From: a virus
Virus genome (UHGV): UHGV-0185973
Direction: 5' to 3' (one strand)
Length of the DNA: 64,000 nt
Shown here: in pieces, positions 32,787 to 33,560 of the stretch
Layout of the letters: every line of letters begins with the position of its first letter
Position numbering within the stretch: the first letter of the stretch is position 1
Notes under the pieces: model-generated
Told to the model about the DNA's origin: nothing
The model's database searches: none
The model's input: only the letters and a program-made list of their open reading frames with translations
Program-made: the position numbers and the translations under genes

Positions 32787-32861
32787 TTGACAGAAGACCA
32801 AATACAGCAAACAACTTTTACTTTTCGCGCATAGAAAACATAAAAAGCTTGGTCTGGTCAT
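32787..32861 (+). repeat. inter-tRNA repeated element, copy a
   Basis: CAGAAGACCAAATACAGCAA ... CTTGGTCTGGT; ends are inverted repeats (AGACC/GGTCT). Confidence 0.5.
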
Positions 32862-32868
32862 TAAGAAT

Positions 32869-32945
32869 TGCGGGTATAGAGAAAGGGCGTCTCACATGTC
32901 TCATTAGCATGGTATCGGTAGGTTCGACTCCTGCACCCGCCTCCA
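32869..32945 (+). tRNA. tRNA-Met (anticodon CAT; elongator/initiator/Ile-lysidine not distinguishable)
   Basis: Anticodon arm CATGT-CTCATTA-GCATG; T-arm GTAGGTTCGACTCCTGC; CCA encoded. Confidence 0.65.
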
Positions 32946-32949
32946 AATT

Positions 32950-33017
32950 TACAGAAGACCGTTTACAGCAATTCAAACAATTTTATCGGAAAATTAAAAT
33001 GAATACGGTCTGGTAAT
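32950..33017 (+). repeat. inter-tRNA repeated element, copy b
   Basis: ACAGAAGACCGTTTACAGCAA ... ATACGGTCTGGTAAT. Confidence 0.5.
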
Positions 33018-33026
33018 GTTAAACAT

Positions 33027-33103
33027 GGTTAGGAAGCACATAAGGCATGTGCGGTCGGCTGTTAACCGAATGGCACAGGGTTCGAATCCCTGACTAACCG
33101 CCA
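33027..33103 (+). tRNA. tRNA-Asn (anticodon GTT)
   Basis: D-stem GCAC/GTGC, loop CTGTTAA, T-arm CAGGGTTCGAATCCCTG, CCA. Confidence 0.75.
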
Positions 33104-33113
33104 AAATTTAAAT

Positions 33114-33201
33114 GCGTCGTTATCCCGTAGATGGAAGCGGTGGTGACTGTAAATCACTTGTCATTACGACTCGGTAGGTTCGACTCCTTCACGGCGCACC
33201 A
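33114..33201 (+). tRNA. tRNA-Tyr (anticodon GTA), class II
   Basis: Anticodon arm GTGA-CTGTAAA-TCAC, long variable arm, acceptor GCGTCGT/ACGGCGC, CCA. Confidence 0.7.
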
Positions 33202-33207
33202 AATAAA

Positions 33208-33285
33208 GGTTATGTAGTTTAATCTGGTTAAAATACCTCCCTGTCACGGAGGAAGATGTGGGTTCGAATCCCATCGTAACCGCCA
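33208..33285 (+). tRNA. tRNA-Asp (anticodon GTC)
   Basis: Anticodon arm CCTCC-CTGTCAC-GGAGG, T-arm GTGGGTTCGAATCCCAT, CCA. Confidence 0.75.
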
Positions 33286-33346
33286 ATTTTGAGAAGGGCT
33301 TTTTAGCCCCTCCCTTAAAGAGTTCTTGCGAGTATTCTTTAAAGGA

Positions 33347-33425
33347 GCAGAAGACCAAATTCAGCAAGCAACAAAAATATTTCAAGCCAATTAATTTGAA
33401 AAATTTAAAACTTGGTCTGGTTCCA
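33347..33425 (+). repeat. inter-tRNA repeated element, copy c
   Basis: GCAGAAGACCAAATTCAGCAAGCAAC ... AAACTTGGTCTGGTTCC; paralogue of copy a. Confidence 0.5.
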
Positions 33426-33427
33426 AC

Positions 33428-33560
33428 AAATTTACAGAAGACCGTTTACAGCAAGTTAAACAATCTAATTCTCTATGAAAGAAAGGGCGAAGGTTCGATT
33501 CCTTCACACGTTACGGCGTGTTGGTGTAATGGCAGCACTTAAGATGATACGGTCTGGTAA
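33428..33560 (+). repeat. inter-tRNA repeated element, copy d (with T-arm-like insertion)
   Basis: TACAGAAGACCGTTTACAGCAAG ... ATACGGTCTGGTAAT; internal GAAGGTTCGATTCCTTC resembles a tRNA T-arm remnant. Confidence 0.45.

Follow-up and report, generated by a model that had tools for sequence, protein, structure and literature searches.

Here we describe four short elements, a to d, which lie between the tRNA genes of a 64-kb stretch of viral DNA (64,000 nt of UHGV virus genome UHGV-0185973, the whole of which is called the window below). Judged by its sequence, the window belongs to a Felix-O1-like phage (Ounavirinae). We read the elements as small non-coding RNA genes whose products are Y-RNA-like partners of the Ro60-fold protein encoded at 31044-32459, and give this reading a probability of roughly 70%. 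That a to d are members of a conserved structured RNA family, tied genetically to a Ro60-fold protein family in many phages, is well supported. By analogy, we further consider it probable that the protein binds the shared terminal structure, here called the handle, and that the resulting ribonucleoprotein particles (RNPs) work like Ro60-Y particles, probably in RNA surveillance or counter-defence. An earlier, sequence-only reading of the region had proposed that the elements could be small stable RNAs, processing signals or mobile mini-elements. It missed the Ro60-like neighbour gene and the reach of the family far beyond Felix-O1-like phages.

The elements stand out clearly from the rest of the window. 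The pattern AGAAGACC-N(3-5)-CAGCAA was found at four sites in the 64 kb (32792, 32953, 33349 and 33436), all on the + strand, and at none in 100 shuffles. Each site is trailed by GGTCTGGT, at 32851, 33007, 33414 and 33551, respectively. The full pattern AGAAGACC-N5-CAGCAA...GGTCTGG describes exactly four elements in the window with none expected by chance, and a strict structural descriptor likewise left a to d as the only qualifying sites. A repeat finder grouped the 5' ends of all four into one family, in which b and d are 91% identical over the first 43 nt. Elements a and c share AGACCAA...TTGGTCT, while b and d share AGACCGT...ACGGTCT. The four paralogous copies with a shared start, CAGCAA and a shared end, and their division into two subfamilies of two, had been noticed in the sequence-only reading and hold up. 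It had assigned them to four separate spacers, whereas c and d are direct neighbors within a single long spacer, tRNA-Asp to tRNA-Lys, beside other structured segments. The elements are:

32788-32860, + strand: element a, short type, between tRNA-Glu and tRNA-Met; outer stem UGAC/GUCA, AGA/G loop, stem AGACCAA/UUGGUCU (32795-32801 with 32849-32855), AUA-CAGCAA (32802-32810), apical hairpin UUUUC-GCGCAUA-GAAAA.
32949-33016, + strand: element b, short type, between tRNA-Met and tRNA-Asn; outer stem UUAC/GUAA, AGA/G loop, stem AGACCGU/ACGGUCU (32956-32962 with 33005-33011), UUA-CAGCAA, apical hairpin.
33344-33424, + strand: element c, short type, in the tRNA-Asp to tRNA-Lys spacer; outer stem GGAGC/GUUCC, AGA/G loop, stem AGACCAA/UUGGUCU (33352-33358 with 33412-33418), AUU-CAGCAA, apical hairpin UUUCAAG...UUUGAAA.
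33432-33560, + strand: element d, long type, in the tRNA-Asp to tRNA-Lys spacer; outer stem UUAC/GUAA, AGA/G loop, stem AGACCGU/ACGGUCU (33439-33445 with 33549-33555), UUA-CAGCAA.

The predicted fold common to all four elements begins with a copy-specific outer stem of 4-5 bp and an asymmetric internal loop with AGA on the 5' and G on the 3' side. Inward of this loop follow a 7-bp stem (AGACCNN/NNGGUCU), the sequence NNN-CAGCAA, which is predicted to be mostly unpaired, and a variable apical part that forms a small hairpin in a to c and a permuted tRNA-like domain in d. Pairing of the element ends had been foreseen. The termini do pair, not as CAGAAGACC against GGTCTGGT as such, but through the 7-bp stem, the AGA/G loop and the outer stem. 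Thermodynamic z-scores of the elements are modest (-0.3 to -2.3), and folding energy alone therefore proves little.

Comparison with related phages gave much clearer support for the structure. Between 288 and 290 records of Felixounavirus, Mooglevirus and Suspvirus match the tRNA region of the window at 80-97% identity, and the elements were found at the same positions in 30 loci. For a count of base pairs, the 5' and 3' ends of 37 distinct Felix-like copies were joined. Pairing reaches 99.6% in the inner 7-bp stem and 100% in the four proximal pairs of the outer stem, compared to 23-50% in controls with a slid partner strand. Compensatory, two-sided changes occur at five pairs. In the inner stem, AA/UU alternates with GU/AC. 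Among the relatives, the outer stem of element b covaries between UUAC/GUAA and UUGC/GCAA, and that of element c becomes GAGC/GCUC. The covariation-aware alignment and the comparison of related tRNA regions, both of which had been recommended with the initial proposal, thus favor candidate small stable RNAs with pairing termini: both terminal stems covary, and the predicted pairing is conserved. Furthermore, CAGAAG, CAGCAA and GGUCUGG are invariant across the Felix-like copies, which suggests recognition by a protein rather than structure alone.

A candidate for such a protein is encoded next to the elements:

31044-32459, + strand: gene of a 471-aa Ro60-fold protein; Pfam DUF2828 and DUF7788; PHROG phrog_850 ('RNA-binding protein').

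This gene ends 329 nt upstream of element a. Its product combines a ring of HEAT repeats with a C-terminal von Willebrand factor A (vWA) domain that carries an intact MIDAS motif (metal ion-dependent adhesion site), and thereby has the architecture of Ro60. The MIDAS residues are invariant. Sequence searches of the PDB, with the single sequence and with a profile, found neither Ro60 nor anything else, and a fold comparison was therefore needed. An AlphaFold2 model built with 36 homologs reached a predicted local distance difference test (pLDDT) value of 87.7 and a predicted template modeling (pTM) score of 0.88. Using this model in a Foldseek search against the PDB, the top ten matches were all Ro60/TROVE structures.

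The protein is the ortholog of gp130 (bas63_0130) of phage Bas63, with 83.7% amino-acid identity, and g130 of Bas63 is placed like the window gene, upstream of a tRNA array and with the same four elements downstream. Bas63 gp130 has been described to resemble Ro60 structurally and to counter the Ppl defence system, and the authors guessed at Y RNAs among the tRNA genes downstream (PhageMaP preprint, 10.1101/2024.10.10.617714). In that work no RNA was identified and the guess concerned annotated tRNA genes, whereas the candidates described here are unannotated spacers.

We then asked how far the handle extends beyond the Felix-like phages. The distant set comprised 80 loci with DUF2828 genes (numbered with the prefix L), 75 from a profile-based IMG/VR scan (38-48% identity) and five found earlier (29-38%). 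The literal Felix-type motif (AGACC...GGTCT plus two pairs) gave only scattered chance matches in these loci. Locus L040 (48% identity) contains spacer elements with other stems that follow the same logic, for example AGAGCAC-AUU-CAGCAA...GUGCUCU-G. A general descriptor asks for AG and N5, a 3-nt spacer, CAGCAA and, no more than 150 nt further on, the perfect 7-bp complement with CU at its end, followed by G. It matched 46 times, in 33 of the 80 distant loci and without exception on the strand of the gene, compared to 0-2 matches in shuffled loci. A relaxed version, allowing one mismatch or a U:A first pair, was not used for counts owing to noise inside coding regions.

A covariance model (R1) was built from 18 short elements with the handle stem as the sole structure. 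This clean 18-sequence subset replaced an initial MAFFT alignment of 25 short elements, in which the 3' strand of the stem had been broken up. Searching 630 kb with R1 revealed 81 matches at E<=1, of which 79 lie on the strand of the gene, and 62 at E<=0.01, all on the strand of the gene. At the stricter threshold, 59 of the 62 matches are located in distant loci and fall in 43 of the 80. None of these 59 lies inside the gene: 21 are upstream (median gap 65 nt) and 38 downstream (222 nt). At least 43 distant loci carry the handle, at distances from the gene that mostly range from tens of nt to a few hundred. R1 also matches window elements that were outside its training set, namely b (41.3 bits, E 1.5e-6), a (37.6 bits, E 1e-5) and c (33.9 bits, E 1e-4). 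Across 33 distinct non-training matches, a to c included, the stem is 100% paired and six of the seven pairs covary, with slid controls at 23-50%; the alignment of these sequences was fitted to R1, which favors pairing. The second stem pair is G:C in all 33, and the first is A:U in 21 and U:A in 10. Tandem copies are common, with four in the window and at least five in each of L076 and L096. Importantly for the interpretation, the handle was also found beside DUF2828 genes in loci in which ARAGORN detects no tRNA (L048, L054, L079, L081, L086, L090 and L096). Since many handle loci have no tRNA gene, we conclude that the handle follows the protein gene, not tRNA arrays.

DUF2828/phrog_850 proteins are very common in phages, with more than 1,600 clusters in each of two protein searches, and their carriers range from Felix-O1-like phages to jumbo Vibrio phages. 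The best 120 matches listed in each search are phage proteins only; DUF2828 is also present in plants and in mimivirus-like sequences. In the literature, our search of which had incomplete coverage, we found no earlier description of RNAs associated with DUF2828. At the gathering threshold, Rfam recognized only tRNAs in 20 distant loci, and no family was reached by the window elements. By Rfam thresholds, a to d are consequently outside the YrlA and Class I families.

The closest parallel to this arrangement is the Ro60-Y system. In bacteria YrlA and YrlB adjoin rsr (Chen et al., 2014, PMC4201824), and in the Thermus phage phiLo Yrl1 and Yrl2 adjoin the Ro60 gene, just upstream of it (PMC12135203). 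The canonical Ro60-binding motifs are GGUCCGA in animals and GNCGAAN0-1G or CGAA in bacteria and phages (PMC4201824, PMC12135203). In the phages studied here, small RNA genes also directly adjoin the gene of a ring-shaped HEAT and vWA protein. The RNA ends pair into a stem with a conserved protein-side motif by an internal loop, separate from a variable module. Usually shorter RNAs accompany a single long one, whose tRNA-like domain is permuted (V, T, acceptor-like and D). A constant protein-binding stem joined to a variable effector module is, in this analogy, the defining logic of Y RNAs. The systems differ in that the phage protein is a DUF2828 protein rather than a TROVE protein detectable by sequence, that the Felix-like RNAs sit inside a tRNA array, and that some members elsewhere carry a normal D-anticodon-T tRNA module or a module that is not tRNA-like.

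The long RNA of the window is element d, whose apical part contains the following features:

33469-33483, + strand: V hairpin.
33489-33505, + strand: canonical T arm, GAAGG-UUCGAUU-CCUUC.
33506-33521, + strand: acceptor-like hairpin, ACACG-UUACGG-CGUGU, then UG.
33524-33538, + strand: D arm, GUGU-AAUGGCA-GCAC.

In this domain the tRNA is open at its anticodon stem, while its acceptor end is closed. The order V-T-AS-D, with AS the acceptor-like hairpin, closed by the handle stem, is the layout of bacterial YrlA. A T-arm-like insertion in d had been spotted before. The T arm is there, and it is part of a whole permuted tRNA-like domain rather than an insertion on its own. The Rfam tRNA model matches weakly at 33450-33513 (26.9 bits). 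Among relatives the acceptor-like hairpin covaries between ACACG/CGUGU, ACUCG/CGAGU and a 7-bp form, ACCCUUC/GAAGGGU. The RNAalifold prediction for 14 long elements from 10 loci contains the T arm, the acceptor-like hairpin and the terminal stem; 15 of its 18 pairs show compensatory changes. That element d is a YrlA-style tRNA mimic is well supported. The consensus handle of the Rfam YrlA model differs from the handle of d. The only match of that model in the window spans tRNA-His/Phe and was judged spurious.

Other members carry a variety of modules on the same handle. Permuted tRNA-like domains were found in L042, L044, L049, L057, L063, L074, L076, L096 and L114. The element in L057 (2889-2951) is the best related match to the Rfam YrlA model, with 39.2 bits confined to the tRNA-like core and below the gathering score of 69. 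A tRNA body in normal order, with D, anticodon and T arms and the handle in place of the acceptor stem, is present at L063 2758-2858, L074 2764-2860 and L076 5520-5616. Hence, one RNA family uses two different permutations of tRNA mimicry. Some long members have a T arm alone as cargo, and at least two further conserved modules are not tRNA-like. We observed one of the latter, with GAACCUUUCUGGAGGGGAAAGCAAAAACUCGCCAA, at L041 149-281, L042 2737-2837, L043 2276-2371, L045 1265-1374 and L061 2734-2829, and another in elements of 157-167 nt at L085 2486-2642, L093 2485-2649, L099 1714-1878 and L114 1166-1332. A constant handle with swappable modules suggests a general means by which phages could attach various factors to a single ring protein.

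The only Rfam family that matches the phage elements, below its gathering score of 41.5, is RF01414 (Dicty_Class_I_RNA). Scores are 28.4 bits for window element b, 16.9 for a, 28.9 for L048, 26.4 for L081 and 26.1 for L054; elements c and d have no match to this model. The matches are full-length, coincide exactly with descriptor elements and occur nowhere else in the DNA searched. The candidate rule of the Class I authors, at least 25 bits and a stem (PMC7919456), includes b, L048, L081 and L054. Class I RNAs are about 60 nt long and have a 6-bp terminal stem that is conserved in structure and not in sequence, with an invariant 5' G:C pair (Kjellin et al., 2021, PMC7919456). They start with AAG, end with CUGU and carry an 11-nt motif, CCUUACAGCAA, by the 5' strand, followed by a variable remainder; they are abundant free RNAs of 42-65 nt, nuclear-encoded with a DUSE promoter, and have been reported to be unique to Dictyostelia (PMC7919456). 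Known since 2004, they are required for development to proceed normally. The proteins pulled down with DdR-21 were the RNA recognition motif (RRM) protein Rnp1A/CIBP, GuaB, NdkC and the uncharacterised DDB_G0281243. Rnp1A/CIBP is the one proven direct binder.

The phage elements resemble Class I RNAs in their length of about 60 nt, in the terminal stem of 6-7 bp with variable sequence and an invariant 5' G:C pair, in the flanks A(A)G...CUG(U), in the (C)UUACAGCAA motif directly 3' of the 5' strand, and in a variable A-rich remainder, with a few long members. Indeed, most phage elements are flanked by AAAG...CUG(A/U), and those of the window by AGAAG...CUGG. Directly after the phage stem follows UUACAGCAA, AUACAGCAA or AUUCAGCAA, in which U and CAGCAA are invariant. 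Published Class I sequences read G and 5 nt, a 4-nt spacer, CAGCAA, and, at the other end, 6 nt and UG, so that the spacer between stem and CAGCAA is 4 nt in amoebae and 3 nt in phages. With a hidden Markov model (HMM) made from phage sequences only, matches in register with the motif were obtained in 25 of the 29 Class I RNAs, compared to 31 of 1450 shuffles. Two unusually long members of Class I, DdR-66 and DdR-67 (104 and 141 nt), start with GGGCUUCUUACAGCAA, almost the same as the AGGCUUCUUACAGCAA at the start of L081 4685-4750 and L076 5520-5616; read with a 7-bp stem, the two Class I RNAs have the 3-nt spacer of the phage type. In contrast, the window copies add an outer stem and the AGA/G loop, Class I RNAs have no known Ro60-like partner, and they are transcribed from independent DUSE genes, while the window has sigma-70-like promoter sites and a predicted co-transcription of its elements with tRNAs.

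Tentatively, and with somewhat less than even confidence, we propose that phage elements and Class I RNAs form one family defined by the handle, here a G:C-closed stem of 6-7 bp, UUACAGCAA and a CUG end, with a DUF2828 Ro60-like protein as partner in viruses and eukaryotes. If this were true, Class I RNAs would take the place of Y RNAs in a second branch of Ro60-type RNPs that has gone unrecognised. Such RNAs would then be predicted in those eukaryotes and giant viruses that have DUF2828 (plants, mimiviruses), and DDB_G0281243 may be an amoebal DUF2828 protein. The resemblance offers a checkable hypothesis for the protein partner and the origin of an RNA class that has been an orphan for 20 years.

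Transcription of the window elements can be predicted from promoter-like sites around the gene and the tRNA array:

32478-32506: weaker promoter-like site (consensus scan).
32568-32597, + strand: sigma-70-like promoter with TTGACA, an 18-nt spacer, TG and TATAGT (11/12 consensus matches).
34038-34066: next strong promoter-like site, after tRNA-Ile (consensus scan).

The site at 32568-32597, a pattern match from the consensus scan, is the best of the region and precedes tRNA-Pro. A pattern scan found no + strand terminator-like site between it and the site at 34038-34066. A single precursor starting from the 32568 site is thus likely to carry nine tRNAs and elements a to d.

On this basis the RNAs would be transcribed together with the tRNAs from the promoter-like site at 32568 and released by RNase P and 3' exonucleases as these process the neighboring tRNAs. 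The ring-shaped protein would then bind the handle, and the variable module would recruit or mimic a second factor, which in the case of d may be tRNA-recognising enzymes, as in bacterial YrlA. The RNP could serve the phage in RNA surveillance or in countering host defence, in line with the action of the ortholog gp130 against Ppl.

Several points weigh against a Y-RNA-like role of a to d. The link between protein and RNA is drawn from gene neighborhood and analogy. The Pfam TROVE domain was not detected in the 31044-32459 protein, only DUF2828 and DUF7788, and a protein that is not a sequence-detectable TROVE member may bind RNA in a different mode from Ro60. None of the canonical Ro60 motifs (GGUCCGA, GNCGAAN0-1G, CGAA) is present in the 5' strand of the handle, which reads (N)CAGAAGACC in the window and AAG-N5 elsewhere, the conserved motif being the G:C-closed stem and CAGCAA. 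Even at E<=10, element d is not matched by the Rfam YrlA model (RF02553). In about 40% of the distant loci, no element was found within 3 kb. Finally, the R1 training set was picked by a descriptor that demands perfect pairing, so that its own pairing statistics are circular and no evidence, and therefore only non-training matches and shuffle controls count as tests.

We considered four other explanations. The elements might be cis-regulatory parts of the DUF2828 mRNA, such as an autoregulatory operator in an untranslated region (UTR) bound by the protein, and many distant copies do sit on the same strand, either 9-220 nt ahead of the start codon or 21-60 nt past the stop. The window elements, however, alternate with tRNA genes downstream of strong promoter-like sites, loci with several copies in tandem are common, many copies carry whole tRNA-like domains, and the look-alike RNAs of dictyostelids are abundant and free. 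Bacterial Y RNAs, too, are co-transcribed with rsr (rsr-yrlBA-rtcBA operon) and then processed. We hold a regulatory role to be unlikely. It is quite improbable as well that the elements are stable RNAs independent of the neighboring protein, for instance decoys or sponges for host tRNA-targeting nucleases or RNA-binding proteins. Anticodon-nuclease decoys would fit the tRNA-like modules, and the sole known direct binder of the amoebal look-alikes is the RRM protein Rnp1A/CIBP. Yet the invariant part is the handle, most copies are without a tRNA-like module, and the handle tracks DUF2828 through many lineages, at protein identities of 30-48% and whether or not tRNA genes are present.

The same tracking bears on the two other proposals of the sequence-only reading, neither of which we uphold. 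Spacer structures that merely guide processing of a polycistronic tRNA precursor could well look like a to d, which lie between tRNA genes and have closing stems, and other spacers of the array are strongly structured, too. Such a role is very improbable, with the handle standing beside DUF2828 genes where no tRNA gene is detected, with the other structured spacers devoid of a CAGCAA handle, and with a single-stranded CAGCAA that is invariant and unneeded by processing hairpins. Miniature mobile or recombination elements that helped to assemble the tRNA array would account for multiple paralogous copies with complementary ends, but this idea is hardly credible: there are only four copies, in one place beside the DUF2828 gene and in one orientation, that of the gene, and none elsewhere in the 64 kb. 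Moreover, about 30 related genomes have them at fixed orthologous positions, their complementary ends show the covariation of an RNA helix that tolerates G-U pairs, and no target duplications were seen. We therefore return to Y-RNA-like partners of the Ro60-fold protein as the preferred reading of a to d.

One DUF2828 member has already been linked to escape from a bacterial defence system. The handle, the covariance model and the four RNA genes in tractable E. coli and Salmonella phages, Bas63 included, make the RNP directly testable. The current annotation is of relevance here. In the public records examined the spacers of interest carry no RNA-like annotation, and some carry short hypothetical open reading frames (ORFs). 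Such 'hypothetical protein' ORFs overlie elements c and d and the next structured spacer, and are probably spurious. In Bas63 (L116, MZ501086) these are the minus-strand ORFs bas63_0137 (2730-2882) and bas63_0138 (2894-3004), and L002 has a hypothetical ORF likewise at 2582-2802. Transposon or knockout phenotypes assigned to ORFs of the bas63_0137/0138 type may reflect loss of an RNA.

In unrelated phages, DUF2828 genes repeatedly adjoin tRNA arrays on the same strand. These arrays lie downstream of the gene in L040-L045, L057, L061, L062, L077, L078, L083 and L087 and upstream in L030, L032, L034, L063 and L074. This suggests that the DUF2828 family is functionally tied to phage tRNA biology.

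The tRNA array of the window contains 23 tRNA genes detected by ARAGORN, all on the + strand between 32625 and 37919. Three further genes were missed by ARAGORN:

32709-32780: tRNA-Glu-UUC, Rfam tRNA model 53.7 bits.
33116-33196: tRNA-Tyr-GUA, Rfam tRNA model only 22.8 bits; labelled tRNA-Tyr or pseudo/OTHER in the records of relatives.
34391-34469: tRNA-like gene, Rfam tRNA model 31.7 bits, overlapping the start of ORF 34443-34835.

Small ORFs are scattered through the array (34443-34835, 36077-36289 and 36334-36561). None of the three has a Pfam match; the product of the first is Cys-rich at its N-terminus. Annotations of relatives place an HNH homing endonuclease inside the matched tRNA region. 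One of the matching records, GU169904 ('Staphylococcus phage SA1'), is 87.7% identical to the enterobacterial Felix-like tRNA region, which is odd for the stated host, and may be mixed or mislabelled.

Four other spacers of the array are structured without the CAGCAA handle (33559-33707, 33784-33868, 33286-33348 and 35812-35905). They include a closed multi-branch fold of 149 nt (minimum free energy -50 kcal/mol, z -5.9), an 85-nt hairpin (z -5.7) and two smaller structures (z about -3), and may represent further small RNAs or processing structures.

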